Shown here: piece by piece, positions 4,287 to 41,332 of the stretch
Layout: each line of letters starts with the position of its first letter
Position numbering within the stretch: the first letter of the stretch is position 1
Source of the DNA: Chloroflexota bacterium
GTDB taxonomy: Bacteria > Chloroflexota > Dehalococcoidia > Lucifugimonadales > G022566795
DNA: 48,765 bases
NCBI GenBank assembly: GCA_022566795.1
Contig: JADFIF010000005.1
Coordinates: 1-48,765, forward strand
Direction: 5' to 3'
Program-made: the position numbers and the translations under genes
Notes under the pieces: model-generated
What the model was told of the DNA's origin: nothing
Database searches by the model: none
The model's input: only the letters and a program-made list of their open reading frames with translations

Positions 4287-4550
4287 CTATCTTCTCAGCC
4301 CAAGCTTTGCGATGAGAGACCTGTAGCGTCCCACATCTTCCCCGTTGAGGTATCGGAGCAGCCGCCGCCGGCGGCCCACCATACTGAGGAGGCCACGACG
4401 TGTCGATTCGTCGTGCTTGTGGACTCTGAGGTGCTGGGTCAACTGGGTGATCCGGGCCGTCAATACCGCGACCTGGAGCCCCGTCGAGCCTGTGTCTTTC
4501 TCGTGCGTGCGATATTCGCTGATCAGGGCGTCCTTCTCAGCTTTCTCCAA
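4287..4550 (-). CDS. rpsO: 30S ribosomal protein S15
   Basis: [34 protein letters not shown]; TTG start with AGGAG RBS. Confidence 0.98.
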
Positions 4551-4600
4551 CCGAGTCTCCTGGGGTCCCTACTTTTTCCATACGCTCTTTCTTAGCCCCG

Positions 4601-4609
4601 ATTGTAGCA
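4601..4609 (-). promoter_or_regulatory. Extended -10 promoter (TGcTACAAT) for rpsO-pnp
   Basis: Minus strand reads atgctacaat about 50 nt upstream of rpsO. Confidence 0.5.
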
Positions 4610-4653
4610 TGCGGCTCAGGCCTGCCGCAATGAGAGCGCGACGTTTCGCTGGA

Positions 4654-5745
4654 CTAATCGATGGCGGGCAGCTCCTCCGCCGAGTAGTGCGTGGCACGGA
4701 ACACCGCATTGCTCGGCTCGCCCTCCGGACCCTCCGGGAAGTAAGGGTTGATGTACTCCCACACGACTTTGCCTCCGGGAGTTACCTGAAACATCCGCCC
4801 GAAGTTGCCTTCGGTGATCAGCGTGTTCCCGTTCGGCAACCGGCGCGCCCCGGAAATATAGGGGCTGAAGAAGTTGAACGGCGGGGAGTCGGCGTACTGC
4901 CAAACGATCTCGTCTGTGTGAGGGTCGACCTCGATAACGCGCGAGGCCGGCATGGCCCACTCTTTTCGATGGGCTCCGTTGTCGAAGATCAGCACGTTGC
5001 CGTTGGCGAGGAGGGTCGGGTCGTGCTGCTGAGATAGGGTTTCGTAACCCAGCTTCCACGTAAAGTCGCCGCTCTTCTTGTCGACAATCCCCACCGTGGA
5101 GATGTTGCGGAAGGAGACCATGAACCTATCGCCATCCAACGGGACCACCGTGTTGGCGTGAGTCCACTCGTGGCGAGGGTCGTTGAAGGTAATCCTGTCC
5201 GTCGCGAAGTCAAGGTGGTGAGCGGCGTGCCACTCCCAGACCCGATTGCCTGCGGCATCGACCTCGACGATGACGTCGGCCCACATCACATCTACATCAC
5301 TCTCCGCGATTCCGCCCCGTACCCGGCGCGCCACATCGGCCGATAGGCGCTCCACGGCGAGGTAAATCGCACCGCCGGCGGGCGTCCGCCTGGCGTCGTG
5401 GTGGTGCTCAGGGTCACGGTGCTCCCACAGGATCCGCCCATTCCAGTCGGCCTCGAGCATGACGCCGCCTTTGAAGCGGTTCCACAAGCCGAAGCGGTCC
5501 CAAGTCTCGTCCTTGAGCTTCCCTCCGTAGAACAGATTCCCGTTGGGAAGCAGATAGCCCCACAGCCCAGGAGGGTACGGCATGTCCCAGCGGTGGACCT
5601 CGTTTCCCTGCAGGTCGATCAACAACACCTCGCCGCTTCCGTAAAGCGGAGCGTAAAGCGTATATCCGGGGCACGCTAACTCCTCATCCAGGGCCGTTAA
5701 CCCGGTGCGCACGATACGTCTGCGGGTCTGCTGGTCTACAGCCAT
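4654..5745 (-). CDS. Arylsulfotransferase (ASST)-like beta-propeller protein
   Basis: HHD, W.HAN, QHD...GNVLIFDNG, SGARRLPNGNTLITEG motifs typical of the ASST family; no signal peptide. Confidence 0.8.
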   Translation of the reverse strand: MAVDQQTRRRIVRTGLTALDEELACPGYTLYAPLYGSGEVLLIDLQGNEVHRWDMPYPPGLWGYLLPNGNLFYGGKLKDETWDRFGLWNRFKGGVMLEADWNGRILWEHRDPEHHHDARRTPAGGAIYLAVERLSADVARRVRGGIAESDVDVMWADVIVEVDAAGNRVWEWHAAHHLDFATDRITFNDPRHEWTHANTVVPLDGDRFMVSFRNISTVGIVDKKSGDFTWKLGYETLSQQHDPTLLANGNVLIFDNGAHRKEWAMPASRVIEVDPHTDEIVWQYADSPPFNFFSPYISGARRLPNGNTLITEGNFGRMFQVTPGGKVVWEYINPYFPEGPEGEPSNAVFRATHYSAEELPAID

Positions 5746-14457: not shown

Positions 14458-15168
14458 TCACGAAGGAGCAGCATCCGCGTTGCCGACCTTTGCCGGATCC
14501 GGCTCGAGAGATGCCCGCCCCGATGTGGTACGGGCGTAGACGCCTCGATGACTCTCTGGCAGCAGATCGGCGATGCGACCCATGACCATCTCGGTGAGGG
14601 AGTCGAGCTCTTCATCCTTCGGCTTACCCTCCGGCGCCGGAAGGGTAAACGGCTCGCCTATCCTCACGCGCAGCTTCGCCGTTGGGTTAAAGACTCGCCC
14701 AACGTTGTTGAGGTGCTCGGTCCCGGTTATTCCGATAGGAATGAGGGGGGCTCGCGTCCGCAGAGCCACTTGCACGACGCCTGGCTTGGCCCTGCGCATA
14801 GCGCCGGGGTTGCGAGTCCCTTCAGGGAACAGGACCACAGCCTCGCCGCTTTCGAGCTTGCGCAATATCCATCGCAGGGCGCGGATATCACCTTCCTGGC
14901 GGCGCAGTGGGAAGGCGCCCCAAGAGCCCAGGAACCATCGGATAATCGGTCCCTTGAAGATGCCGGCCTTTGCCAGGAACCAGGTGTGCCTTTTCAGGAC
15001 GGCGGCCAGCAGGGGTGGGTCGATGTTGCTCTGGTGATTGGCCACGATGATCAGCGGCCCTGTCGTGGGCAAGTTCCCCTCGCCCGATACCTCGAGGTCG
15101 GCAAAGAGCCGGAGACTCAGCCTTTGCACGGCGGTGCATATAGGCCGGACGATGGGGGTTATCATCAA
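14458..15168 (-). CDS. plsC: 1-acyl-sn-glycerol-3-phosphate acyltransferase
   Basis: NHQSNID (HX4D), FLAK, FPEGTR; overlaps the cmk stop codon. Confidence 0.88.
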   Translation of the reverse strand: MMITPIVRPICTAVQRLSLRLFADLEVSGEGNLPTTGPLIIVANHQSNIDPPLLAAVLKRHTWFLAKAGIFKGPIIRWFLGSWGAFPLRRQEGDIRALRWILRKLESGEAVVLFPEGTRNPGAMRRAKPGVVQVALRTRAPLIPIGITGTEHLNNVGRVFNPTAKLRVRIGEPFTLPAPEGKPKDEELDSLTEMVMGRIADLLPESHRGVYARTTSGRASLEPDPAKVGNADAAPS

Positions 15169-15833
15169 CCGGACTCGACTTTGGAGACGATAATCTCAAC
15201 TACCTCACCGATGCCAAGGCGATCGGTTTCTATGGTCGTGGCGTCGTCGTCGGGCTTCAACGGCGAGTCATCGCGCCCTGCATCTATTTTATCACGGTGG
15301 CTCAACGCGGCCATGACCTCGTCGCGGTCTGCGGGTTGCCCTCTCTCTTCTAGCTCACGGTGACGGCGCTGCGCGCGAACCTCGGCCGACGCCGTCAAGA
15401 AGATCTTGGCCTTCGCCTCTGGAAGAACCACCGTGCCGATGTCGCGGCCCACCATGACGATCGACGCTTCCCTGGCTATCGCACGCTGTTGTTGCACCAT
15501 GACGGACCGTACGGCGGGCACCGCGGAGACCTCGGAAACGCTGCCGTCAACCAGAGGGCTGCGTAGCTCGTCCGTGATGTCCCGGCCGTCTACGAGGAGC
15601 CTGTCGCCTGCGTCTCCCCAGACTACGGTAATCTCCAGGCTCGACACGAGTCTCGCGATAGCGTCCTCGTCTCGGATATCGACTCCGGCGCGTATCGCCG
15701 CTAGGGTCGCGGCCCGATACATCATACCGGTGTCCAGAAACCGCACCCCGAGCCTTTCGGCGAGCCGCCGACCAACGGCGGACTTGCCTGAGGCAACGGG
15801 CCCATCGATTGCTATGGAAATTGGGCTAGTCAC
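15165..15833 (-). CDS. cmk: Cytidylate kinase
   Basis: IAIDGPVASGKS, LDTG.MYRA, GRDIGTVV.P.A..K.FLTAS..RA.RR. Confidence 0.96.
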   Translation of the reverse strand: MTSPISIAIDGPVASGKSAVGRRLAERLGVRFLDTGMMYRAATLAAIRAGVDIRDEDAIARLVSSLEITVVWGDAGDRLLVDGRDITDELRSPLVDGSVSEVSAVPAVRSVMVQQQRAIAREASIVMVGRDIGTVVLPEAKAKIFLTASAEVRAQRRHRELEERGQPADRDEVMAALSHRDKIDAGRDDSPLKPDDDATTIETDRLGIGEVVEIIVSKVESG

Positions 15834-15895
15834 TATTCGTCGGCCTATGATGAACGTCTGCGACTGCAGCCAAACGTCTCACGAGAGATAAAGCG

Positions 15896-15925
15896 ATTAT
15901 AGGAGGGTCTTCGCGCCGCTAGCAA
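15896..15925 (-). promoter_or_regulatory. Putative sigma70 promoter for cmk-plsC
   Basis: TTGCTA-N18-TATAAT on the minus strand. Confidence 0.55.
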
Positions 15926-15962
15926 GGAGATAACGTTGGCCCTCCGCTTCGATTCAATCCTG

Positions 15963-17297
15963 CTACGGCAAAACTCCCTGGCGAAAGTCGGCGTCGTAAT
16001 CGAGGATGCGGCCCAGGCTCTTCTGGGCCTCAAGCGACACTACCGATGGGGCGCTGTGCCTGACCGGCGCATATCCGATGACCCCGTCCTGCTCCAACGA
16101 TTCGATCTCCCGCTCTGTCCGGCCGAGCATGCCGGACAACACGAGCCGGTTATGCTCGCCCATCGTTGGCGCTGGGGTGCGAGCGACGCCGGGAGTCTTG
16201 GAGAATCGCCAGGGCCGGCTAGGGTAGGGGAGCGGCGGCATCTGGGTGCTGGAGTGATGGGCCATAGTCTCGAAAAAGCCGCGGTCCCGCAGGTGGGCGT
16301 CCGCCAAGAGCTCTTTGCCGTTAAGGACGGCGCCGGCCGGCACGCCCTTGGCCTGAAGGGCGTGCATGAGCTTGATGTGGTCCCAGGGCCGGGTGGCGTC
16401 GTCGACGAAGGCGTCCAGATCTCGGCTATGCCTCCACCTCGACAGTGTGTCGGCGAACCTAGCGTCCTCGGCCCAAGCGGGCTGATTAAGAACGGCGCAA
16501 AGCGACCGCCACTGGGCGTCAGTCGCCACGGCGATGGCGATCCACTTGTCGCGTCCCGAGCACCTGTAGTTGCCGTGGGGCGCCATCGTCGAATCCGCGT
16601 TCCCGCGGCGAGGCTGTACGCGTCCGTTGACCGTGTAGTCGAGCAGTGCCTCGGGAATCGTCGAGCTCACCGTCTCGGTCTGAGAAACGTCGATTCGCTG
16701 GCCCTTACCGGTGCGTGCCCGGTGGGTCAAGGCCGCCATGATGGCGAAGACCGTGTGCTCCGCCGCGACGTAGTCTGCGTAGGGGATCTCTGGCACCACC
16801 GGTGGACCGTCCTCATAGCCGGTCATGTACGCGAGGCCCGACGCGGCCTCGGTGGCGTACCCGATGGCGCCGAGCTCCGCCCACGGCCCGGTCTGGCCGT
16901 AACCGGTCGACGAGACCATGATGATGTCCGGCCTTATCTTGCGGAGGTCTTCGTAGGTGAGTCGGAAGTTGCGCACGACGCGGGGCGTAAAGTTCTCCGC
17001 GAACACGTCGCTGACGGCGACCAGGTCGCCGAGTACCTGGCGGCCGGCGGGCAGGCTGAGGTCGAGGGTGACCCCGAGCTTGTTTCGATTCTGCTCGTAG
17101 AAGTTGGCGCAGCGATTCCAAAACGCCCCGTCAACCGAGTTCTCGTAGAACGACGACGCCCGATAGTTCTCGAGACGCCCGCACGACTCGATGCGCACGA
17201 CCTCCGCTCCCATGTCCGACAGCAGTTTGATGGCATGGGGAATGGCGATGAGCTGGCCCATCTCCGTGATGCGGACCCCTGAAAGAGGAAGCGTCAT
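15963..17297 (-). CDS. Class III CoA-transferase (CaiB/BaiF), subunit retaining the catalytic Asp
   Basis: PLSGVRI, GAEVVRIE, NRNKLGVTLDL, ENFTP, GYGQTGP, PYADY. Confidence 0.9.
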   Translation of the reverse strand: MTLPLSGVRITEMGQLIAIPHAIKLLSDMGAEVVRIESCGRLENYRASSFYENSVDGAFWNRCANFYEQNRNKLGVTLDLSLPAGRQVLGDLVAVSDVFAENFTPRVVRNFRLTYEDLRKIRPDIIMVSSTGYGQTGPWAELGAIGYATEAASGLAYMTGYEDGPPVVPEIPYADYVAAEHTVFAIMAALTHRARTGKGQRIDVSQTETVSSTIPEALLDYTVNGRVQPRRGNADSTMAPHGNYRCSGRDKWIAIAVATDAQWRSLCAVLNQPAWAEDARFADTLSRWRHSRDLDAFVDDATRPWDHIKLMHALQAKGVPAGAVLNGKELLADAHLRDRGFFETMAHHSSTQMPPLPYPSRPWRFSKTPGVARTPAPTMGEHNRLVLSGMLGRTEREIESLEQDGVIGYAPVRHSAPSVVSLEAQKSLGRILDYDADFRQGVLP

Positions 17298-18500
17298 CTA
17301 GATGACTCCCGACGCGCGCATCCGTGGTAGCTGTGCCGCTGGGTAGCCAAGCCGGTCGCAGAGAATCTCGCGATTGTGCTGGCCGAGGGTGGGGGCGGGC
17401 GACCTGGCGCTCCACGGCGTGCCGCTCATAGCAAAGGGCGCACCCGGGCTCTTCACTGCACCCATCGCGGGATGTTCGATGTCTACAAAGTAGCTTCGCG
17501 CCTGGTACTGGGGGCTCTCGACGAGGTCCTGGGGGCTGTGGACCACCCCATAGATGAAGCCGCGACGCTCGTGCGCCGAGCGGAAGAGATCAGACGAGTC
17601 TTGCCTCTCGAAGGCCGCGCGAGTCACCTCGTCGAGCTCGGAGGCGTTTTGCCGTCGCAGCTCCGGGGTGGCGAACTGAGGCTGCAGCAGCTCTGGGGCC
17701 TGGAGCAGCTCGGCGCTGGCCTCCCAGTCCTCGTCGCCGAAGGACACCGGCACGATGTAGCCGTCCCTGGTCTTGGTAGGGCTGCGAGGGATGTCACCGC
17801 TGAACGCCGGCTGTCTCCGGCGTATCGCACCGGTGTACGTGTAGAGCGACGTCGTGTCCCGAAGGCACGACGCCATGCACTCCTGAATCGACACGTCGAT
17901 GTGCTGCCCTTCGCCGCCGCCGTTCCTGGCGTACAGCCCGATTAGCGCGGCCGACGCCGCGTTGGTCCCGGCCTTGAACTGGGCCTGCCGCAGAGCGTGC
18001 TTCAGCGGCGCTCTGTCGTTGGAGCCGAAGATGTAGCTGAGGCCCCCCAAGGCATACTCGATGAGGTCCGTGGCAAGAAAATCCCGGTACGGCCCGCTCT
18101 GGCCGAAGTTGGATATCGAGACGGCCACAAGCTCGGGATTTGCCTTCTCAAGCTGTTGGTAGCTGAGCCCTAACGAGGGCATGACTCGGGGGCTGAAGTT
18201 CTCGACCAGGATGTCCGCTTCGTGCGCGAGCTGCAGCAGGATTCCTCTGCCATCCTCCGATTTGAGGTTGAGGGTGACGCTCTGCTTGCTGGTGTTCAGG
18301 TAAGCAAAGAGCAGGCTCTTCTCCAGGTCGGGCTCGTCGTGGTAGAACGGGGCCATCCTGCGAGCGGGGTCCCCCGTGAGGGGCCGCTCGATCTTGACGA
18401 CGTCCGCGCCGAAGTCCGCGAGAAGCTTGGTGCAGTAGGGCCCCGCGACGTGGTGCGTGAGGTCCAGGACTTTGACGCCGTCGAGGGCTGACTCGGGCAA
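17298..18500 (-). CDS. Class III CoA-transferase (CaiB/BaiF), partner subunit
   Basis: ALDGVKVLDL...AGPYCTKLLADFGADVVKIE, NTSKQSVTLNL, FGQSGPY; abuts the next gene. Confidence 0.9.
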   Translation of the reverse strand: MPESALDGVKVLDLTHHVAGPYCTKLLADFGADVVKIERPLTGDPARRMAPFYHDEPDLEKSLLFAYLNTSKQSVTLNLKSEDGRGILLQLAHEADILVENFSPRVMPSLGLSYQQLEKANPELVAVSISNFGQSGPYRDFLATDLIEYALGGLSYIFGSNDRAPLKHALRQAQFKAGTNAASAALIGLYARNGGGEGQHIDVSIQECMASCLRDTTSLYTYTGAIRRRQPAFSGDIPRSPTKTRDGYIVPVSFGDEDWEASAELLQAPELLQPQFATPELRRQNASELDEVTRAAFERQDSSDLFRSAHERRGFIYGVVHSPQDLVESPQYQARSYFVDIEHPAMGAVKSPGAPFAMSGTPWSARSPAPTLGQHNREILCDRLGYPAAQLPRMRASGVI

Positions 18501-18700
18501 GGGTTGTCGCTCCTGGCGTTCGCTTCGATGGCCTGCTAGGTCGGGACGCTCCCGTGGGCCGGCGATGGGCCGGATGGCAACCCATTATACAGAGCAAGCC
18601 CGCCCACCAGAAGGCGCGTTGCGAGCAGAGCCCGCCGTCATCGCGAAGACCTCATGAACGCGCGGGATGCCGCGAGGGCAGACCCTGGCGGGTCATCGTC

Positions 18701-18729
18701 TTGTCTCGGCTTGTGCGCCCCCGTATAAT
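18701..18729 (+). promoter_or_regulatory. Sigma70 promoter for the dehydrogenase-VOC pair
   Basis: TTGTCT-N17-TATAAT; a divergent TATAAT at 18584-18589 (minus) may serve the CoA-transferases. Confidence 0.7.
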
Positions 18730-18775
18730 CGTGCTGCCCTGGACGGGCGAACGCAACACGAGCGAGGAGGAGCCT

Positions 18776-19750
18776 ATGAGCGGGACGGTGGTTCTTTATG
18801 CGCCCAGCGACGACGCGCTGGCGGATTTCCAGCGGGTCGCACCAGGGGGCGCCGATATTTCGTGGGTGGACTCTACGCAACCCATCGAGGAACAGGCCAG
18901 TCAGCTTAAGGACGCGGTTGCCGTCATCGTTGGCGGCGGTGGCGGCTTCTCGGTCGAGCTCGCCAAGTCCTGCGCCAAGCTGACGCTGATTCAGACGACC
19001 AGCGCCGGGACAGATCGCCTGGACAAGCAGGCCCTCGGCGAGATGGGGATAAGGGTCGCCAACAACGGCGGAGGCAATGCGGTTGCCGTGGCAGAGCATA
19101 CCATGGCGCTGATCGTAAGCACGTATCGGAAGCTCCAGCTTCAGCTTCAGGCGGTGAAGTCCGGGGAGTGGGCCGGTGACATTAGAGCGTCGTGGTTCTC
19201 ACAGGCACACGAGTTGGCCGGGAGGACCGTCGGGATCATCGGGCTGGGCCGAATCGGCTCTCGCGTTGCCAGACGGCTCCAGGGCTGGGAGTGCGACATC
19301 ATCTACCACGACGTAGTGCAGTTCCCGGACCTCGAGGCCGAGCTGGGCGTGTCGTCGGTGTCGAAAGATGAGCTCTTGCAGAGCTCCGACGTGGTGACGC
19401 TTCACGTCCCGCTGAACAAGCACACCAGGGGCATGATGAGCGACCGCGAGTTCGGCATGATGAAGCCGACGGCGGTACTGATCAACGCCTGCCGCGGTCC
19501 GGTCGTCGACGAGGCGGCGCTTATTAGGGCCCTCAAGGAGGGCAAGATCGCCGCCGCGGGACTCGATGTTCTGGAGGAGGAACCCACGCCGAAGGACAAC
19601 CCACTTCTGGACATGGACAACGTTCTGGTCACGCCTCACATGGCATCCTTTGCCCAGGAGTCGGGCGAGAAGAGCAGGGTGTTCGCCATGCGGAACGTGA
19701 CCAAGGTAGCCGAGGGAGGCGAGCCCGAGTCGATCGTCCTACCCGAGTAG
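18776..19750 (+). CDS. D-isomer-specific 2-hydroxyacid dehydrogenase
   Basis: AVAEH, GLGRIG, LHVPL, LINACRG.VVDE, AGLDVLEEEP, TPHMA; ATG 18776 with GAGGAGG RBS. Confidence 0.93.
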   Translation: MSGTVVLYAPSDDALADFQRVAPGGADISWVDSTQPIEEQASQLKDAVAVIVGGGGGFSVELAKSCAKLTLIQTTSAGTDRLDKQALGEMGIRVANNGGGNAVAVAEHTMALIVSTYRKLQLQLQAVKSGEWAGDIRASWFSQAHELAGRTVGIIGLGRIGSRVARRLQGWECDIIYHDVVQFPDLEAELGVSSVSKDELLQSSDVVTLHVPLNKHTRGMMSDREFGMMKPTAVLINACRGPVVDEAALIRALKEGKIAAAGLDVLEEEPTPKDNPLLDMDNVLVTPHMASFAQESGEKSRVFAMRNVTKVAEGGEPESIVLPE

Positions 19751-23604: not shown

Positions 23605-24231
23605 TCAAGCGTGCGACGTGCCGGAGGGATTGCTCGGACCCTCGTACCGCATTTCTGGCGAGAGCTGGCCGATGATGCCCATCGCGGCCAGCACACGCTG
23701 GACCACGAAGTCGACGATGTCGTCGATCGTCTTGAGCGCGAGGTAGAAGGGCGGCTCCGGCGGTAGAATGGTGACGCCGAGCCGGGCCAGCGACGCCATG
23801 TTCTCGAGATGGATGGCGTTCAGCGGCGTTTCGCGCGGCACCAGCACCAGGGGGCGGCGCTCCTTGAGGCAGACGTCTGCGGCGCGGCGCACGAGGTTGT
23901 CCGCCAGCCCGTGCGCTATCGCGGCGACGGTCGCCATGCTGCAGGGCACGATGGCCATTCCCAGCGTCGGAAAGGTGCCGCTGGCGATGGGCGCCCGTAG
24001 GTCCGCGGCGGCGTAGTAGGCGAAGTCTTCGCTGTCGCTCCAGCGCTCCAACGCGGCGCCGAAGGACTCGTCCATCTCCTCCTGCCAGACCATCCGCGCG
24101 GCCGAGGATGCCGTGGCGATGACCGGCACGCCCATGGCCAGGAGGCGGTCGATGGCCGCGCGCGCAAGCACCGAGCCGCTGGCGCCGGTAATCCCGATGA
24201 TAGCGGGGTGACGCTGTCCGTTCTCAGTCAC
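23605..24231 (-). CDS. ubiX: Flavin prenyltransferase UbiX
   Basis: GITGASG, IASG, PCSMAT...IAHG...NL..RAADV.LKERR.LVLVPRETPL..IHLENM. Confidence 0.95.
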   Translation of the reverse strand: MTENGQRHPAIIGITGASGSVLARAAIDRLLAMGVPVIATASSAARMVWQEEMDESFGAALERWSDSEDFAYYAAADLRAPIASGTFPTLGMAIVPCSMATVAAIAHGLADNLVRRAADVCLKERRPLVLVPRETPLNAIHLENMASLARLGVTILPPEPPFYLALKTIDDIVDFVVQRVLAAMGIIGQLSPEMRYEGPSNPSGTSHA

Positions 24232-24459: not shown

Positions 24460-25356
24460 CTACACGAAAAGCGCGGCCAGCGTCGCCGCCAGCATTGTCG
24501 TCGAGACGTACGCGTTGATTCGACCGAATGACCTGTCGAGCCGCGAGAGGTCGGTAGGGGAGATGAGGCGGTGCTTGTAGACCAACAGCCCGGTGGCGAC
24601 GGCCAGCCCGAGGAAGTAGGGGAAGGCCAGCTCCATCCAGAGGCCGAGGGATAGCATGCATACCATGGCCAGTGCGTCCAGAGCCCGCGCCCACCGGAAC
24701 GCCCCGGCGATGCCGAACCTGCGCGCGACGGAGTGGTACCCCTCGCGCCGGTGAAATTCGTAGTCTTGCGTGTGGTACAGGATATCGAAGCTCCCGGCCC
24801 ACAGGGCGACAGAAAGGGAAAGCAGCACGGGCTGCCACTGGAGCCGGCCGGTGACTCCTATCCAGGCCGCCGAGGGCGATATGGCCAGCGCCCAGCCCAG
24901 GAGGAGGTTGGCGGTCCACGTGAAGCGCTTGGTTAGCGGGTAGAGCACGAGGTAAGCCACAGCCACCGGCGCCAGGGCCAGCGCCAGCGAGTTCAGCTGC
25001 GCCGCGGCGAAGATGAAGATGCCGAGGGATGCCAGCGCAAACGCGGCCAGCTCGCCGACCTTCAGGCGGCCACTGGGCAGGTGCCTGCCGGCGGAGCGAG
25101 GGTTGCGCGCGTCGATGTGCCGGTCGATGATCCGGTTGGCCGACATGCCAACGGTGCGGGCGCTTACCATGGCGACGGTGATCCAGGCGAACTGGTGCCA
25201 CGTGGGCAGTCCGTCCGCCGCGAGCACCATCCCGATGTAGGCGAAGGGCAGCGCGAAGATGCTCTCATGAAAGGTGATGGCCCCCAGGAACATCGCGCTC
25301 TTGTGGACGACCGGGGTCGATGTTCTTGTCGCGGTCAGAGTCCGTACTCCCGCCAC
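24460..25356 (-). CDS. ubiA: UbiA-like polyprenyltransferase (MqnP-type)
   Basis: F..SIFALPFA, AR..GM..NR..D..ID..NPR...R.LP, YP.TKRFT, W...FDILY..QD; start uncertain (GTG 25356). Confidence 0.88.
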   Translation of the reverse strand: MAGVRTLTATRTSTPVVHKSAMFLGAITFHESIFALPFAYIGMVLAADGLPTWHQFAWITVAMVSARTVGMSANRIIDRHIDARNPRSAGRHLPSGRLKVGELAAFALASLGIFIFAAAQLNSLALALAPVAVAYLVLYPLTKRFTWTANLLLGWALAISPSAAWIGVTGRLQWQPVLLSLSVALWAGSFDILYHTQDYEFHRREGYHSVARRFGIAGAFRWARALDALAMVCMLSLGLWMELAFPYFLGLAVATGLLVYKHRLISPTDLSRLDRSFGRINAYVSTTMLAATLAALFV

Positions 25357-26789
25357 CTGCCGTCGACCAGGCGTTTGATCTCGTCGCTCATCACGATGTC
25401 CGGGGGCCACTCACGGAGGCGTCCGTCGGCCCGTCCCTTGGCGGTGGCGTCGATCCCCATCTTGCTGCCGTACTTCGGCACCGCCGTGGCGTGGTCGAGG
25501 TCGTCGATGGGGCCCTGCGCGAAGACGATATCGTTGGCCGGGTCGATATTGTTGGTGACCCTCCAGGCGACCTCCGAGAGGTTCTGTACGTCCACGAAGT
25601 GGTCGACGATCACGATGGTCTTGGCGAGCATCAGCAGCCCCAGGCCCCACATGGCGTGCATGACCTTCTGGGGATGGCCTGGGAACTCCTTCTTGACGGA
25701 GACCAAGACGAGGTTGTGAAAGATGCCCTCCGCGGGCATGTTCATGTCCACGACCTCCGGCAGCGTCATTTGAAGCGCGGGGAGCATCATGCGCTCGACG
25801 GCCTTCCCCATGAAGAAGTCTTCTGTCGGCGGCCTCCCGACGATCGTCGTCGGGTAGATGGGCTGCTGTCTGTGGGTGATGGCCGTCAGGTGAAAGACGG
25901 GATACTCCTCCGGCGGCGAGTAGTAGCCCGTATGATCGCCGAAAGGCCCCTCGGGACGAAGCTCCCCCGGGACCACGTAGCCCTCCAGCACGAACTCGGC
26001 ATGGGCCGGCGCCTCGAGGTCGATGGTCTGGCACCTGACCATCTCGACGGCCTCCTCCCGCACGAATCCGGCCGCCGCGATCTCGTCCATGTCGGGCGGC
26101 AGGGGCAGCGCGCCCGTCCACATCGTCGCCGGGTCGCCGCCAAGCGCCACCGCGACGTCCAGACGCTCGAGCCGCTGCTCCTCTCCCAGCCTGTAGTGGT
26201 GCGCGCCCACTTTGTGGGTCTGCCAGTGCATGCCCGCCGTGTGCGAGTCGTAGATCTGCATGCGGTAGATCCCGACGTTGCGCCTGCCGGAGACCGGGTC
26301 GCGGCTGATAACCAGCGGCAGCGTAATGAACCTCCCGCCGTCCATCGGCCAGCACTTGAGCGCCGGCAGCATGTTGAGGTCCGCGTCCGCGCCCTTGAGT
26401 ACGACATCCTGGCATGGCCCGCGGCCCACCGTCTTTGGCTGCGTTCTGGCCACTCCGACGAGGTCTCCGAGGGTGCGCACCTTGTTTATCAGTCCGGAGG
26501 GCGGAGCCTGTACCAAGCTGAGCAGCTTGCGGACCCTGTCGGCGAGCTCGTCGATGTGCTCGACCCCCAGGGCCCACGCCATCCGCTGATGGGTGCCGAA
26601 GAGGTTGATCGCGATGGGGGTTTCGTAGCCGCTGACGTTCTCGAAGAGTAGCGCGGGTCCGCCTGACTTGACGGTCCGGTCCGCGATCTCGGTGATCTCC
26701 AGATCGCGGCTCACGGACGACTTGATCCGGAGAAGCTGGCCTTTTTCGTCAAGGAAGGCTATGAAGCCGCGGAGGTCTCTGAACTTCAT
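25335..26789 (-). CDS. ubiD: UbiD-family (menaquinone biosynthesis, MqnL-type) decarboxylase
   Basis: DLEITEIADR..K.GGPALLFEN, WP.DGG.FIT, NVGIYR.Q, EGPFGDHTGYY, GSKMGIDAT. Confidence 0.95.
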   Translation of the reverse strand: MKFRDLRGFIAFLDEKGQLLRIKSSVSRDLEITEIADRTVKSGGPALLFENVSGYETPIAINLFGTHQRMAWALGVEHIDELADRVRKLLSLVQAPPSGLINKVRTLGDLVGVARTQPKTVGRGPCQDVVLKGADADLNMLPALKCWPMDGGRFITLPLVISRDPVSGRRNVGIYRMQIYDSHTAGMHWQTHKVGAHHYRLGEEQRLERLDVAVALGGDPATMWTGALPLPPDMDEIAAAGFVREEAVEMVRCQTIDLEAPAHAEFVLEGYVVPGELRPEGPFGDHTGYYSPPEEYPVFHLTAITHRQQPIYPTTIVGRPPTEDFFMGKAVERMMLPALQMTLPEVVDMNMPAEGIFHNLVLVSVKKEFPGHPQKVMHAMWGLGLLMLAKTIVIVDHFVDVQNLSEVAWRVTNNIDPANDIVFAQGPIDDLDHATAVPKYGSKMGIDATAKGRADGRLREWPPDIVMSDEIKRLVDGRWREYGL

Positions 26790-27958
26790 GCTGTTCCCTT
26801 GCTGGCAGAACCGCGCAGCTCGGTCGAGGAGATGTCGTGCCGGAAGGCGCTCTCAGGTATGGAGCGAAACATCCGCCCAAACCCGGCCGGGACCGCGACA
26901 TCGTCGACGGTGTGGAACTGCACTCCGTCCGCGCGGCCGGCGACGAGAAACGAGCATCCCAGACCGCGCATCTCTTCCAGCGCCAAAAGCATCTGCGTGC
27001 TGCTGCCGTGGTAGTACTTGGGGTCCACGAGTCGCGCCATCGTGTCCCACCCTACCACGAATGTGCAGCCTGGAAAGAGCCTGGCCTTCTCGAAGAAGAC
27101 CGGCGCCCGCGTCAGCACCAAACGTTCATTGCCCCTGAGCTGGCTCGCCCTGGCGCGGACCTCGCTTTTGGCCAGGGGTGGCTTGTCGACGTTCGTGACC
27201 GATAGCTCGAAGGTGACATCGACGCCGAGTATCTTCGATGCCGCGTCTGCAAGCTGCCTGTGGCCCTCGTGCAGCGGGTCGAAGGACCCCGCCAGCACGG
27301 CGCCGGGCACGGGCTCATCAGCGGCCACCCTCCCGTCTCCCTCAAGCGTTGCCGTCGAGATGTGGCCCGCGATAAGCGCCTCGACGCCGTCTATGTAGGA
27401 GACGCGACAGACTTCGACGCGCTCGTCGTGCCCTAGCTCGAGCGGCAGGTCGAAGCTAATGCCGCTGGTCTCCGCGAGCGCGCGCATCACCAGCAGGCTG
27501 ACGACGCGGTCCTCGCCGGCGCGGTCTCGCAATCCCTTGGTCAGCGTCAGGCTATACGTCGTCGCCCCGGTCGCGTCCCAGGCGCAAACGTAGCATCTGT
27601 GGTCCCCGCGCTTTGGACGGTCGGAGGCGATGGCCGCGGTGGACGCTACCCCCGCCACGTGCTCGTTGCCGGGCCTCAGCCGCACCGCTCGGCGATAGGC
27701 TAGCCGGGCCATCTGCTCAGCCGTCTCCGCGCTGACGAGCTGCGCGGGCTCGTGTCCCAGATATTCGACGAGCGAGGCCGAGGCATACGGGACGAGGATT
27801 TCCAGGACGGTCCGGGAGGCCCCGGGCACCTGGAGCAGCCACGAGGTCGATTGGGTTCCCGCCCCGGCCACGACTATGACCGCCATCGTGCCGCAGGCGT
27901 GGAGTTTCTCCGTCAGCCTGTTGATTTCCGCGTCCATGAGTACCCTCACCGAATGCAC
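26786..27958 (-). CDS. CinA/PncC-like N-terminal domain fused to an HxGH nucleotidyltransferase domain
   Basis: VPGASRTVLE..VPY, S..TA..MA, KRGDHR; GSFDPLHEGH, N.DKPPL, F.VG.DT..R, DISSTELR; start may be ATG 27937. Confidence 0.78.
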   Translation of the reverse strand: MHSVRVLMDAEINRLTEKLHACGTMAVIVVAGAGTQSTSWLLQVPGASRTVLEILVPYASASLVEYLGHEPAQLVSAETAEQMARLAYRRAVRLRPGNEHVAGVASTAAIASDRPKRGDHRCYVCAWDATGATTYSLTLTKGLRDRAGEDRVVSLLVMRALAETSGISFDLPLELGHDERVEVCRVSYIDGVEALIAGHISTATLEGDGRVAADEPVPGAVLAGSFDPLHEGHRQLADAASKILGVDVTFELSVTNVDKPPLAKSEVRARASQLRGNERLVLTRAPVFFEKARLFPGCTFVVGWDTMARLVDPKYYHGSSTQMLLALEEMRGLGCSFLVAGRADGVQFHTVDDVAVPAGFGRMFRSIPESAFRHDISSTELRGSASKGTA

Positions 27959-28118
27959 GCGACGGCGCGCTCAACTACTATAGTTGTGGGAGAGGATATC
28001 GTGCAACCAACGGCGGGGTCGTGGCGACGGCCGATCCCCGGTTGGCTCCGCTGATGGGCCGCCGCGAGGACGGCGGATCAATATCGAACAGGCGTCGGGA
28101 GTAGTCCCGCAATCGCGC

Positions 28119-29696
28119 ATGGCTTTGTTGAGACTCTGCGTCCTGATGTTTCTTGTGGCTGTGGTGGCGGCCTGCGGCGGCGGTGCACCGAGGGGTGGCC
28201 AACCGGCGGGGGGCGAGGTCGTGCCTTCTCGCCTGCCTCGTATTGCACGGATCTCGCCCGCACAGGCTGACCGCTCGCCTGCACAAGAGGAGACTCCCCG
28301 GGCGATGCCTGTGCAGGCGAGCGGCGAGTCCCTTGAGCTTTCCTCGACGTCGGACGCTCCCCCTGGCGGCGCACTGACGATCGCGTATCGCGCGGGTAGC
28401 TTCCTCCCGAAAAGGCTGGAGGCTCCGGCCGGTCAGACAGTGACCTTTGTCAACGAGTCCGACGCACCGATGTGGCCTGCATCCAACATTCACCCCACCC
28501 ACGAGATACTGCCAGGCTTCGACGCCAAGAGTCCGATTGAGCCGGGGGAGTCCTGGACGTTCGTGTTCGAAGAGGTTGGGTTCTGGAGGTACCACAACCA
28601 CCTTTCGCCCTCTGAGAGCGGCATCGTCGTCGCTACGGGCGAGCCCCGGACCGCGAGGGCTGAGCCGCTGCTGATCGACCCCCGCGAGCTGACCTTCGAG
28701 GACGTCGGCGCTGCGTCAGCGCAGGACGTGATTGATCTGTTCCGGGACGACACGCTGCTCAACGCCTTCGTCAAGAGGTATGGCCCCGCCGCTACGGTGC
28801 GCATCCTCTCGGAGAACGCGCACAGCGTCGGCGTCGACTGCCACCAGAGAGCGCACGTGATGGGCAGGCTGGCGTACGAGCAGTTCGGCGCGATCGCATT
28901 CTCGCTGTCGGGTCACGAGTGCCACTCCGGCGGCTACCACGGCGCCACCGAGGCGTTCTTTCGCGACCGCGGGACGTCGCACCTGCAGTCGGATATCGGC
29001 GTGGTCTGTGGCGCCGGCCTGAACGACTTCTTTCGGCACCAGTGCGTCCACGGCATCGGCCACGGGCTGATGGCGTGGACGAGCTACGAGATCTTCGATG
29101 CGCTGGAGCTGTGCGACCTGCTGGGGGCCGTGTCCGATCAGCAGTCGTGCTTCTCCGGCGTGTTCATGGAGAACGTCGGGGGTGGGCTGTCGGGCTCTAT
29201 GGGCCACTTCTCGGAGTTCCTGTCAGACGACCCGCACTTTCCCTGCAACATCCTCGACGACCGGTACGTGGTGCCGTGCTACTTCTTCCAGAGCTCCCGA
29301 ATGATTCAGGTTTTCGGAGGCGATTTCGAGCGGCTGGCCGCAGCGTGCGCCGAGGCGCCTGCCGTCGCCCATGCCGTCTGCTTCGGTAGCATGGGGCGAG
29401 ACGTCGGTGGGGTCACAAGGGGTGACCCCGAGCGCGCGATTCGGCTCTGCTCCCACGCCGAGGACCCGGCGAACCGACTCGATTGCCTGGACGGCGCCGT
29501 CCAGGACTCCTTTTGGGACCCTGCCGGAGCCGACAACGCGTTGGGTTTCTGTCAGACTTTGGAGGGAGACGAGGAAAAACGGCGGTGCTACTCGACGATC
29601 GTGGAAAGGGCGGGCTTCGTCCTCGACGATACACTGGCCCTCGAGGGGTTTTGCGGCAGGGTAGAGGCGGGCTATCGGGACGGCTGCGGATTATGA
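28119..29696 (+). CDS. Lipoprotein with a cupredoxin-like domain and a Cys/His-rich helical repeat domain
   Basis: Lipobox VVAAC; F.P..L....GQTVTFVN...HPTH...PGESWTFVF...G.WRYHNH; then CH..AH..G, CH.G.YHG, CVHG.GHG, CF.G.FME repeats. Confidence 0.72.
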   Translation: MALLRLCVLMFLVAVVAACGGGAPRGGQPAGGEVVPSRLPRIARISPAQADRSPAQEETPRAMPVQASGESLELSSTSDAPPGGALTIAYRAGSFLPKRLEAPAGQTVTFVNESDAPMWPASNIHPTHEILPGFDAKSPIEPGESWTFVFEEVGFWRYHNHLSPSESGIVVATGEPRTARAEPLLIDPRELTFEDVGAASAQDVIDLFRDDTLLNAFVKRYGPAATVRILSENAHSVGVDCHQRAHVMGRLAYEQFGAIAFSLSGHECHSGGYHGATEAFFRDRGTSHLQSDIGVVCGAGLNDFFRHQCVHGIGHGLMAWTSYEIFDALELCDLLGAVSDQQSCFSGVFMENVGGGLSGSMGHFSEFLSDDPHFPCNILDDRYVVPCYFFQSSRMIQVFGGDFERLAAACAEAPAVAHAVCFGSMGRDVGGVTRGDPERAIRLCSHAEDPANRLDCLDGAVQDSFWDPAGADNALGFCQTLEGDEEKRRCYSTIVERAGFVLDDTLALEGFCGRVEAGYRDGCGL

Positions 29697-39273: not shown

Positions 39274-40278
39274 TTAGGGGCGAATCAGTATCCTCACAGA
39301 CCCGCTGGGATCTTTGCGCTGCGTCAAGACGCTGTGATTGCCCTTCTCGGCCCATACGATGACGTCGTAGGTGTTGAGGACATCGGGGATAATCACTTCA
39401 ATGAAGGCCTCGCGGTCCTTTTCTACCTGGCCACTGAGGGCGGCTATGATTCCGGCGCACGTCTTGCCAGTTCCATCGATGACGACCCAGCCATTGCTGG
39501 ACTCACCGGACCCGCTGGTGGCCTCGGCCCCGTTGCCGGGGGCGAGGGTTGAGGCGTACACGTCGATCGCCCCGGTCTGCCGCATCTCGAGCTGCCGCTT
39601 GAACTCGGCCACTGCGTCGCGGTGCACGCCGGACGTGCGGTCCCCCTTCTGGCAGACGGCGCCACGGACCCCGACGATGTCAGGATTGATCCTCGCCAGC
39701 TCGTCGAGGTCACTTATCCGTAGATGGCCAGACAGGGCCGTGCTCATGCCCAGCTCTTTGCCCTCGAAAACCATGTCTCGAAGCTCGGGCTCGGTCAGGA
39801 AGTCGAACAGGTTCCGTCCGTCCTTCGTTAGCGTGTCGATAAGATAGCCGTCGCATTGGCCTTCATGAGCCAGCTTAACCGTGAGGTGAGGGTCCAGACC
39901 GTCGTAGAGCGGATTGTCGGCGAACAACGAGCCGATGAGCTTCGTTTCGAATCCATCGAGCGCCTGCTTGGCCGCCAGCAGCGTCTCGACAGCGTAATCG
40001 TACTCCGTGTTCATGAATCCGACTTTGACCGACGTCGCCTTGAGGACGCCGGCGGTATAGGCGGCCATGGCCACTGTCCCGATCTGGTTCGGTACTACTC
40101 CCAGCGTCACACTGGTATGTCGGTCCAGCGGGATCGCTTCTCGAACGTCTCGCACGATATGGGGATGCGCAGAGCCCACCAGGGCCTCCTGGAGGTTCTT
40201 CACGTCGACGATGTCCGCTCCGCCCTCAAGAGCCTCGATAGACTCCGGCAGATTCTGGACACTTACCATCAAAATCAT
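39274..40278 (-). CDS. mfnB: (5-formylfuran-3-yl)methyl phosphate synthase-like protein (MfnB/DUF556) with a C-terminal TusA/SirA-like domain
   Basis: L.VSV....E..EA..GGADIVDVKN..E, VKVG, IDT..KDG..LFDF, AL.G.L, PDIVGVRGAVC; extra 71-aa domain VIDGTGKTC. Confidence 0.8.
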   Translation of the reverse strand: MILMVSVQNLPESIEALEGGADIVDVKNLQEALVGSAHPHIVRDVREAIPLDRHTSVTLGVVPNQIGTVAMAAYTAGVLKATSVKVGFMNTEYDYAVETLLAAKQALDGFETKLIGSLFADNPLYDGLDPHLTVKLAHEGQCDGYLIDTLTKDGRNLFDFLTEPELRDMVFEGKELGMSTALSGHLRISDLDELARINPDIVGVRGAVCQKGDRTSGVHRDAVAEFKRQLEMRQTGAIDVYASTLAPGNGAEATSGSGESSNGWVVIDGTGKTCAGIIAALSGQVEKDREAFIEVIIPDVLNTYDVIVWAEKGNHSVLTQRKDPSGSVRILIRP

Positions 40279-40302
40279 CGCAGATCACCCATAAAGAGTA
40301 GA

Positions 40303-41268
40303 CTAGGCCCGGACGGCCTCGATGTCCTTCTTCAACTCGCGCTTCTCGTCGTCGGTCAGGTCCGAGAGCGGAGGCCTCACGTGACCTCCGGCCATGCCCA
40401 TCAGCTCGCCCCAGTACTTGCAAAGAGGCGCCGGCAGGGCGCCCTTCTGCTTCTGCACGATGCGGGTCCACCACTTGTCAGACACCTGTTTGATGGGCTT
40501 GATCTTTTCGTCGTAAAAATCGTCGTCCAGGTCTCCGCGCATGGCCTTGTCGATGAACTGGACGTAGTAGTTCTCGTCGGGCGTGTCGAACCGCCAGTCC
40601 GACGTGTTGGCGAACATCACCTGCTGCTCGAAGCCGAGCTCTCGACCCTTGAACAGTATCCACTCGTCCGGCGTGCTGATGATCGAATCCCGGCCGATGA
40701 GTTGGTGGGTCTCTATCGACAGCTCCTGATTGAAGCTGGCCTCTTTCACGCCTACGACACTGGGTATCCGGCAGATCTGCGCGAGGCCTTGAGCGCTCAT
40801 GACGATGCCAAACTGCGGCGAGTTGTAGAACATGATGGCCAGCGGCGTGCCTTCGGCGAGCATCCTCACCCAGTCTACCACCTGTTGCTCGGTCTTGGTG
40901 ACGATGTATGGCGCGGCCACGATGAGCAGGTCGAAGCCGACCTCGTTGGCGTGCTCGGCCAGCGCGAGCATCGACTTGGCGGATGTGTGGGTCACGTGGG
41001 CCGCGATAGGCCACTCGCCGTTCGCCTCCTCGGAGACCAAATCGTACACGCGGGTGCGCTCCTCGTGGGTTAGGCTCCAGAACTCGCCCATGCCCCAGGT
41101 GCAGCCGCCGCCCTGTGTGCCGAGCGATCGGATGTGGCGGACATTTCCGCGAAGTCCATCCTCGTCCAACTCGTCGTCCGGCGTGAACGGCGTCATGATT
41201 GTGGTCCACTGGCCGCGTAGGTTTTCCCGCGCCCAGTCCATGGCTTCGCTTTTCGAGTATTCGGCCAC
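40303..41268 (-). CDS. Dihydrodipicolinate synthase-family aldolase (non-canonical)
   Basis: TPF..D.ELDEDGLR.N, GEFWSLT.EER, APY, MFYN, VGVKE (Schiff-base Lys), VRPPL. Confidence 0.85.
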   Translation of the reverse strand: MAEYSKSEAMDWARENLRGQWTTIMTPFTPDDELDEDGLRGNVRHIRSLGTQGGGCTWGMGEFWSLTHEERTRVYDLVSEEANGEWPIAAHVTHTSAKSMLALAEHANEVGFDLLIVAAPYIVTKTEQQVVDWVRMLAEGTPLAIMFYNSPQFGIVMSAQGLAQICRIPSVVGVKEASFNQELSIETHQLIGRDSIISTPDEWILFKGRELGFEQQVMFANTSDWRFDTPDENYYVQFIDKAMRGDLDDDFYDEKIKPIKQVSDKWWTRIVQKQKGALPAPLCKYWGELMGMAGGHVRPPLSDLTDDEKRELKKDIEAVRA

Positions 41269-41304
41269 TTCGTATCTCCTGTAGGGGCCTGTTCAGCGAA
41301 AAAT

Positions 41305-41332
41305 ATCATACCATGGTGGGGGTGCGTGTCAA
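41305..41332 (-). promoter_or_regulatory. Sigma70 promoter for the aldolase-mfnB pair
   Basis: TTGACA-N16-TATGAT with extended TG. Confidence 0.7.

Follow-up and report, generated by a model that had tools for sequence, protein, structure and literature searches.

The window analysed here, a 48,765-nucleotide stretch of a Dehalococcoidia genome from the phylum Chloroflexota (assembly GCA_022566795.1, contig JADFIF010000005.1), contains two adjacent genes that probably replace the missing early steps of menaquinone biosynthesis in SAR202 bacteria. Gene 1 is a DHDPS/KdgD-type Schiff-base aldolase, and gene 2 is a fusion of an MfnB-type lysine aldolase to a flexibly tethered, cysteine-bearing TusA-fold domain; the two encode one three-part enzyme system. 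We put at about one half the probability that this system makes the precursor of the menaquinone head group, by a third route beside the Men and futalosine pathways. Most bacteria and many archaea use menaquinone as their respiratory quinone, and to our knowledge just two pathways leading to its ring system have been described. In the dark ocean, SAR202 bacteria rank with the most abundant bacterial groups, and the SAR202 genomes searched here hold only the late menaquinone steps. Our data show directly the domain families, the conserved catalytic residues, the fusion and synteny, the way the genes are distributed and the lack of the known early genes; what we infer is that the unit serves menaquinone synthesis, that it uses triose phosphates and pyruvate as substrates, and which product it makes. 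If the proposal is correct, an essential respiratory cofactor would have a new biosynthetic route, which closes the gap in the early steps of SAR202 and builds an aromatic ring from C3 units in a new way; public annotation would be corrected for hundreds of genes that at present carry the name methanofuran synthase, and a marker would be gained for quinone-based respiration in uncultured lineages.

The late part of the pathway is encoded in the window itself, on the minus strand and 13 kb from the pair. A UbiD/MqnL gene (25335-26789) matches TIGR03701, ‘menaquinone biosynthesis decarboxylase’, with 605 bits against a cut-off of 495.9; a UbiA/MqnP-like gene (24460-25410) scores best with the MqnP models, below their cut-offs (287 vs 430); and a UbiX/MqnM-like gene (23605-24231) passes TIGR00421. 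The early part was sought in a set of five genomes, consisting of the window's own genome (85% completeness) and four chromosome-level relatives. MqnA/D (PF02621) was found in none of the five, and neither MenD (TIGR00173) nor MenB (TIGR01929; best score 237 vs 342.7) rose above its cut-off in any of them. No MqnE (TIGR03700) match was obtained in genomes G000, G001 and G002, whereas G205 and G172, two relatives with Mqn genes, scored above the cut-off. Ahead of the UbiD-UbiA-UbiX operon is an open reading frame (ORF) of 390 aa (26786-27958, minus strand), the end of which overlaps the UbiD start by 4 nt and of which the C-terminal half alone matches a family (cytidylyltransferase-like, E 2e-7). 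A 207-aa ORF ahead of this one (27978-28601) has no family match.

The distribution of these genes was followed in 101 genomes of the window's order that are at least 80% complete (order sample), and in 151 genomes across the class (class sample). PF04476, the family of the gene 2 barrel, was found in 63 of the 101 order genomes, every one of which also has UbiD (63/63). UbiD itself occurs in 82 of the 101, and the 19 genomes that lack it also lack PF04476 (0/19). Full-strength PF02621 proteins are present in 13 order genomes (12 with two copies, plus G225), all with UbiD and none with PF04476 (0/13). The class sample repeats this pattern: nine genomes have PF04476, all nine with UbiD, and ten have PF02621, with no overlap between the two groups. 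Fusion-bearing and Mqn-bearing genera are both present within one family outside the window's order (f30). ThiC was used as a control, and its gap, which is also lineage-wide (present in 6/101 order genomes, 3 of these fusion-bearing), shows no such complementarity.

Position and sequence of UbiD were examined for the same link. In two genomes from two families, G167 (locus L088) and G178 (L089), UbiD, UbiA, UbiX and the fusion follow one another on a single strand, the gaps ahead of the fusion measuring 180 and 379 nt, and in G197 (L087) UbiD-UbiA-UbiX and one more ORF converge on the pair. Of the 63 order genomes, 42 carry both the fusion and UbiD on one contig, at a distance of at most 30 kb in 31, at most 10 kb in 21 and at most 5 kb in 4; in Mqn-bearing relatives, Mqn genes are often found beside UbiD. 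When UbiD was retrieved from 17 Mqn-bearing genomes, ten of the same order fell in the window's UbiD clade, within which the window's protein is 64-71% identical to these ten and 59-77% identical to those of fusion-bearing genomes. A UbiD tree of 61 rows shows the fusion and Mqn labels interleaved, which takes no fewer than six changes, and no alignment column separates the two groups, 169 columns being conserved alike in both. Judged by its sequence, UbiD looks like the same enzyme in fusion-bearing and Mqn-bearing genomes. Behind the triple fusion of G167, on the same strand, is a luciferase-like (F420/FMN-type) oxidoreductase (L088, 9304-10176, plus strand), which might catalyse another step in this pathway.

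The two genes, which an earlier note made from this DNA alone had described as a unit, are syntenic well beyond the window. The sequence statements of that note all proved to lie where it had put them. A relative of gene 2 is encoded in 548 stretches of species-representative genomes, and the best 80 of these, all Dehalococcoidia or SAR202 by title, were analysed. A DHDPS-like gene lies directly upstream of the gene 2 relative in 79 of these best 80 loci; the gene is spread over two frames at L016, contig ends truncate L030 and L054, and L037 alone lacks it. In related loci both genes are 67-81% identical, against 52-61% for the neighbouring hemA and 50-68% for recG, and the pair is kept even where the flanks differ. 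That the three parts belong together is further indicated by natural fusions. One protein of 699 aa (P0123) comprises DHDPS, 4HFCP_synth and TusA; in the class sample all 8 other genomes with a match have fused open frames of 706-766 aa, and in the order sample split and fused forms both occur. The 24-nt spacer between the window's two genes (40279-40302, minus strand), correctly described in the earlier note, is gone in the gene-fused lineages (open frames of 627-766 aa, P0123).

The three parts also exist as separate genes. Metagenome loci L151-L167, found by a scan with alignment A2 (a metagenome scan with P0134 as the query gave no match), encode an MfnB-like protein, a small TusA and a DHDPS-like protein in that order, with 58-64% identity to the window for the MfnB-like and 51-59% for the DHDPS-like protein. 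Proteins in this clade bear names such as Marsarchaeota and Thermoplasmata archaeon, and the ESM Atlas yielded a lead to archaeal clusters and otherwise just those of the protein itself. The flanks of loci L063, L089, L090, L154 and L163, whose neighbourhoods differ, showed no recurrent partner, and no transporter or regulator is conserved next to the pair in related loci. In L063, a pyridoxal-phosphate (PLP)-dependent decarboxylase and a rhodanese (14800-16098 and 4371-5693, both on the minus strand) lie less than 5 kb from the pair, a feature not seen at the other loci; MfnA presumably belongs to this family of PLP-dependent decarboxylases.

Gene 1 (40303-41268, minus strand; 321 aa) encodes a divergent class I aldolase of the DHDPS/KdgD family (PF00701, 96.9 bits, E 1.1e-27), the DHDPS membership of which the earlier note had recognised. 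It has in common with the DHDPS/NAL superfamily (DapA, NanA, KdgD) the fold family, the lysine in G-V-K-E-A and the tyrosine in Y-N-x-P; the superfamily also includes the NahE-type hydratase-aldolase. In an alignment with DapA 3si9, the Schiff-base lysine is Lys175 (codon 40744-40746, in VVGVKEAS) and the tyrosine lies in FYNSP; conservation was judged over 77 sequences. Gene 1 differs from DapA at several positions. Aligned to DapA structures, it has TWGMGEF at the place of GTTGES, the substitution of WGMGE for GTTGE to which the earlier note had drawn attention; it has PYI for PYY and no arginine behind the YN.P motif (YNSPQFG in the alignment), and its final 120 residues align with no solved DapA. 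We take the DapA-specific residues, in role and numbering, to be Thr44 and Thr45 in GTTGE, Tyr107 and Arg138. Among the NCBIfam equivalogs, gene 1 is below the cut-off for every one, including the DapA model TIGR00674 (79 vs 206). Its top match is the KdgD-type PRK03620 (90 bits vs 278), and the WGMGEF motif is nearer the KdgD-type subfamily, for which we assume the motif GGTGEF, than the earlier note implied.

Gene 2 (39274-40278, minus strand; 334 aa) begins with a TIM-barrel domain of the MfnB type, i.e. of the family of synthases for 4-HFC-P, or 4-(hydroxymethyl)-2-furancarboxaldehyde phosphate (residues 1-235; 39574-40278), modelled with a predicted local distance difference test score (pLDDT) above 90. 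PF04476 (4HFCP_synth) matches residues 3-226 with E 3.5e-54 and 184.4 bits against a cut-off of 22.4, and residues 1-228 align with Methanocaldococcus jannaschii MJ1099 (PDB 4rc1) with E 4.4e-40. The motifs DVKN, VKVG and DT..KDG, listed in the earlier note, are all kept. D25, K27 (codon 40198-40200), K85, D148 and K152 align with D25, K27, K85, D151 and K155 of MJ1099, and are invariant across two sets, of 81 and of 52 sequences. The roles of the MJ1099 active-site residues other than Lys155 were reportedly described by Wang et al. 2015. The clade of gene 2 is tight, with archaeal-named relatives at 57-61% identity and other aligned MfnB-like proteins at 33-43%. According to PMC11365854, Lys155 of MJ1099 is catalytic, and the MfnB barrel joins triose phosphates via a lysine Schiff base, a biosynthetic chemistry.

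The barrel is followed by a Gly/Ser/Ala-rich linker (residues 236-263; 39490-39573), which is predicted to be disordered (pLDDT below 50 at residues 245-261) and is variable, with no sequence conservation in the family alignments, and by a C-terminal domain of 71 residues (264-334; 39277-39489). Modelled alone, this domain reached a pLDDT of 88, with the order beta-alpha-beta-alpha-beta-beta, and is predicted to have the TusA/SirA fold. Its VIA Z scores are 10.9 to SirA-like 3hz7, 10.3 to TusA of the IscS complex (3lvk_B/3lvj_C) and 10.2 to YeeD, in keeping with the TusA/SirA-like domain that the earlier note had placed at 39274-39489, behind a linker. Over the TusA-fold structures 3hz7, 3lvk_B, 8k1r_B and 1dcj, 70-73 residues superpose with Z of 9.4-10.9 and a root-mean-square deviation of 1.7-2.2 Å, and Foldseek gave TM scores of 0.71-0.73 with 1dcj, 3hz7 and 8k1r_B; Alba-fold proteins are nearly as close to the model (Z up to 9.7). 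At the sequence level the match is weak. Pfam TusA (PF01206) aligns with residues 267-333 at E 0.029 and 14.6 bits vs a cut-off of 28.6, the C-terminal domains of relatives score 20-26 bits on the same model, and a PDB profile search with the domain found no TusA at E up to 10; a stand-alone orthologue (L154, 10762-11031) passes with 38.3 bits. The conserved cysteine, Cys274 (codon 39457-39459, in DGTGKTCAG), starts helix 1 and is invariant across sets of 81 and of 49 sequences, so that the conservation on which the earlier note's case depended does hold. With model residues 10-82 on TusA 7-79, this cysteine (C22 of the model) falls, by the aligned ranges, on TusA residue 19, and we take Cys19 to be the persulfide site of TusA. 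The domain thus resembles TusA, SirA and YeeD (PF01206; 1dcj, 3lvj/3lvk, 3hz7, 8k1r) in its fold, in the cysteine at the start of helix 1 and in the D-x5-C spacing, and differs from TusA in being fused to an aldolase, in scoring below the Pfam cut-off and in having Cys-Ala-Gly instead of Cys-Pro-x-Pro, presumably the TusA motif.

In the mechanism that we propose, the MfnB barrel would condense triose phosphates via its lysine Schiff base, and the DHDPS-type partner would add a pyruvate enamine to an aldehyde. Addition of a pyruvate enamine to an aldehyde is the reaction of DHDPS-type enzymes. The tethered cysteine might ferry an intermediate, or sulfur, from one barrel to the other, although this part is a guess. 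The product would be an aromatic carboxylate made from small central metabolites, either 1,4-dihydroxy-6-naphthoate or a close equivalent, which an MqnP-type enzyme would prenylate and MqnL/MqnM-type enzymes would decarboxylate, before methylation. By hand reasoning, the equation 2 glyceraldehyde 3-phosphate + 2 pyruvate = 1,4-dihydroxy-6-naphthoate + CO2 + 2 Pi + 4 H2O is balanced and involves no net redox change, which we do not count as evidence. The three-part system would then supply what MqnA-E supply elsewhere and, in SAR202, take the place of both early pathways, Men and futalosine; non-orthologous displacement is the simplest account. Like the early futalosine enzymes MqnA-MqnE, which lead from chorismate to 1,4-dihydroxy-6-naphthoate, it excludes full MqnA/D and holds an equivalent place in the gene distribution, and it is found beside MqnL/MqnP/MqnM-type genes in two genomes, as Mqn genes are in relatives. 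It is not homologous to MqnA-MqnE, has no radical-SAM enzyme and no PF02621 domain, and probably starts from triose phosphates and pyruvate instead of chorismate. In its full form, the proposal holds that SAR202, together with the archaea that have the three parts as separate genes, has a third, non-homologous pathway to the head group of menaquinone, free of chorismate and radical-SAM chemistry, in which two Schiff-base aldolases act on triose phosphates and pyruvate and the tethered cysteine domain shuttles or activates an intermediate; for this fuller version the odds are slightly less than even.

Several observations weigh against a role in menaquinone synthesis. By hand reasoning, we found no way of mapping the atoms of 4-HFC-P and two pyruvates onto the naphthoate without rearrangement, and the role of the TusA domain has no place in known menaquinone chemistry. 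In most genomes, the window included, the pair lies 7-20 kb from UbiD amid unrelated housekeeping genes, so that its proximity to UbiD could in most genomes be inherited synteny, and the flanks of the metagenome contigs with three separate genes contain no UbiD, UbiA or UbiX. Two genomes of family f80 (G183 and G230) carry the fusion together with one weaker PF02621 protein (118-132 bits). Six UbiD-bearing order genomes (G163, G215, G249, G204, G238 and G111) have neither the fusion nor Mqn. Similarly, nine Dehalococcoidia genomes (G163, G215, G249, G204, G032, G110, G031, G064 and G043), which span both samples and include four of these six, have an MqnL-type UbiD, 44-68% identical to that of the window, and lack the fusion, MqnA/D and MenD. 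Because such genomes exist, UbiD can evidently occur without any known or proposed early route; these nine may hold a further early route or take up a precursor. Finally, correction for kinship left just 5 independent pairs on supported branches, with Mqn opposite in about 2.6 of the 5 and unchanged in about 2.4 (sign test, p 0.25). As a separate observation on the two f80 genomes, the PF02621 protein of G183 lies 11 kb from the fusion, and both G183 and G230 carry ThiC, unlike most of the order.

Part of this speaks for the main rival explanation, in which the product is a furan-derived metabolite or cofactor, as yet undescribed, perhaps containing sulfur and unrelated to quinones, and the UbiD/Mqn pattern reflects shared ancestry and lifestyle. 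The intact catalytic residues of the MfnB barrel and the invariant cysteine of the TusA-fold domain agree with such a product, as do the small number of independent contrasts (p 0.25), the UbiD genomes without any early route, the housekeeping surroundings of the pair in most genomes and the three-gene metagenome contigs without a nearby UbiD. It accounts less well for the one-strand UbiD-UbiA-UbiX-fusion clusters in two families, for the co-occurrence with UbiD in 63/63 genomes and with full Mqn in 0/13, and for labels that switch repeatedly on the UbiD tree; the ThiC control, moreover, indicates that not every lineage-wide gap yields this pattern. We regard an unrelated metabolite as a serious but rather unlikely explanation.

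A poorer fit is a pair of aldolases that break down, for example, sugar acids or furanic compounds, the lineage being known to degrade a broad range of organic matter. The DHDPS family does include many catabolic aldolases and dehydratases, and the best NCBIfam matches are of the KdgD, NanA and HpaI types, all below their cut-offs. The pair is nevertheless single-copy, conserved at 67-81% identity where the housekeeping genes next to it reach 52-61% (hemA) and 50-68% (recG), fused to a TusA-fold domain and without a conserved adjoining transporter or regulator, and MfnB chemistry is biosynthetic according to PMC11365854. A catabolic role would be surprising on these grounds.

Far less credible still is the function under which the public records file gene 2, that of a conventional MfnB for methanofuran or methylofuran. 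Its basis is the 184-bit match to PF04476 and the name ‘(5-formylfuran-3-yl)methyl phosphate synthase’ that NCBI gives to the relatives, and gene 2 does share with MfnB (MJ1099; PF04476; PDB 4rc1/4u9p) a class I aldolase TIM barrel and the catalytic Asp/Lys set. It differs from MfnB in its tethered TusA-fold domain and in the DHDPS-like barrel with which it is always partnered or fused, and it falls far below the cut-offs of all four NCBIfam MfnB models (185 vs 341; 173 vs 304). In a library clustered at 50% identity, the fused clade reduces to few clusters, and family members of typical length (about 225-270 aa) outside this clade are at most 44% identical to gene 2, the nearer exceptions being fragments and one 256-aa form at 60%. 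Formylmethanofuran:tetrahydromethanopterin (H4MPT) formyltransferase (FTR, PF01913), which was detected in both methanogens used as controls, was found in none of the five genomes (0/5), and for this reason we see no conventional explanation for the MfnB homologue. The earlier note had reported no other mfn or H4MPT genes in the window, and none are among the window ORFs scanned with Pfam. Its broader question of a conventional methylofuran pathway elsewhere in the genome is answered in part, by the FTR result; mfnA, mfnC-F, fhc and mch were outside the search. Given that the results on fold, cysteine, synteny and FTR all came out in its favour, the earlier proposal of an undescribed metabolite or cofactor stands with partial support, and our results make it more precise by pointing to the head group of menaquinone.

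The weakest alternative, a thiamin pyrimidine (hydroxymethylpyrimidine phosphate) synthase filling the SAR202 ThiC gap, was rejected: ThiC is missing from all five genomes (0/5) while ThiG and two ThiE copies are present, and a singleton MfnB-ThiD2-ThiE fusion exists (P0220), but across the order ThiC is absent from fusion-lacking relatives as well and present in three fusion-bearing genomes (6/101 overall). The ThiC gap agrees with the pyrimidine auxotrophy described in PMC12236431, and TenA salvage genes are recorded for SAR202 in PMC10470507. P0220 (602 aa), in which an MfnB-like domain is fused to ThiD2 and ThiE (TMP-TENI), forms a one-member cluster from a single contig and may be an artefact of assembly or gene calling. 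An archaeal-type aromatic amino-acid route (AroA'/AroB'-like) was likewise rejected, with 3-deoxy-D-arabino-heptulosonate 7-phosphate synthase present in 5/5 and 3-dehydroquinate synthase in 4/5 genomes. In the papers that it covered, our literature search found nothing linking MfnB-like proteins with TusA, DHDPS or menaquinone, and nothing on SAR202 quinone synthesis; an apparent mention of DUF556 in PMC10364804 is actually DUF5565.

A strong sigma-70-type promoter match (41305-41332, minus strand), TTGACA-N16-TATGAT with a TG-extended -10 element and 11 of 12 positions matching, precedes gene 1 as the earlier note had it; promoter-like sites number two in the 2.7-kb region vs 0.7 +/- 0.8 in shuffles. 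Gene 1 has a GTG start codon with AGGAG ahead of it. In a search for a riboswitch ahead of the operon, for thiamin pyrophosphate or otherwise, no Rfam match in the window exceeded its gathering score. The neighbours of the pair in the window are glutamyl-tRNA reductase, L28, FakA/DegV, RecG, YtxH, prephenate dehydratase and TrkA. In four runs from one study, contigs of RNA libraries reach 20-29 of the 30 bins with 90-99% likeness, which we do not count as evidence of expression, and a single 457-nt contig spans the junction of genes 1 and 2, which we do not count as evidence of a single transcript. One RNA-library contig of a relative (run X3) has an additional base where the DHDPS-like gene has its stop codon, at window position 40303, coinciding with the point at which the genes are joined in fused lineages. 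Elsewhere in the window, two neighbouring family III CoA-transferase paralogues of 444 and 400 aa (15963-18500, minus strand) adjoin a D-2-hydroxyacid dehydrogenase (18554-19750, plus strand).

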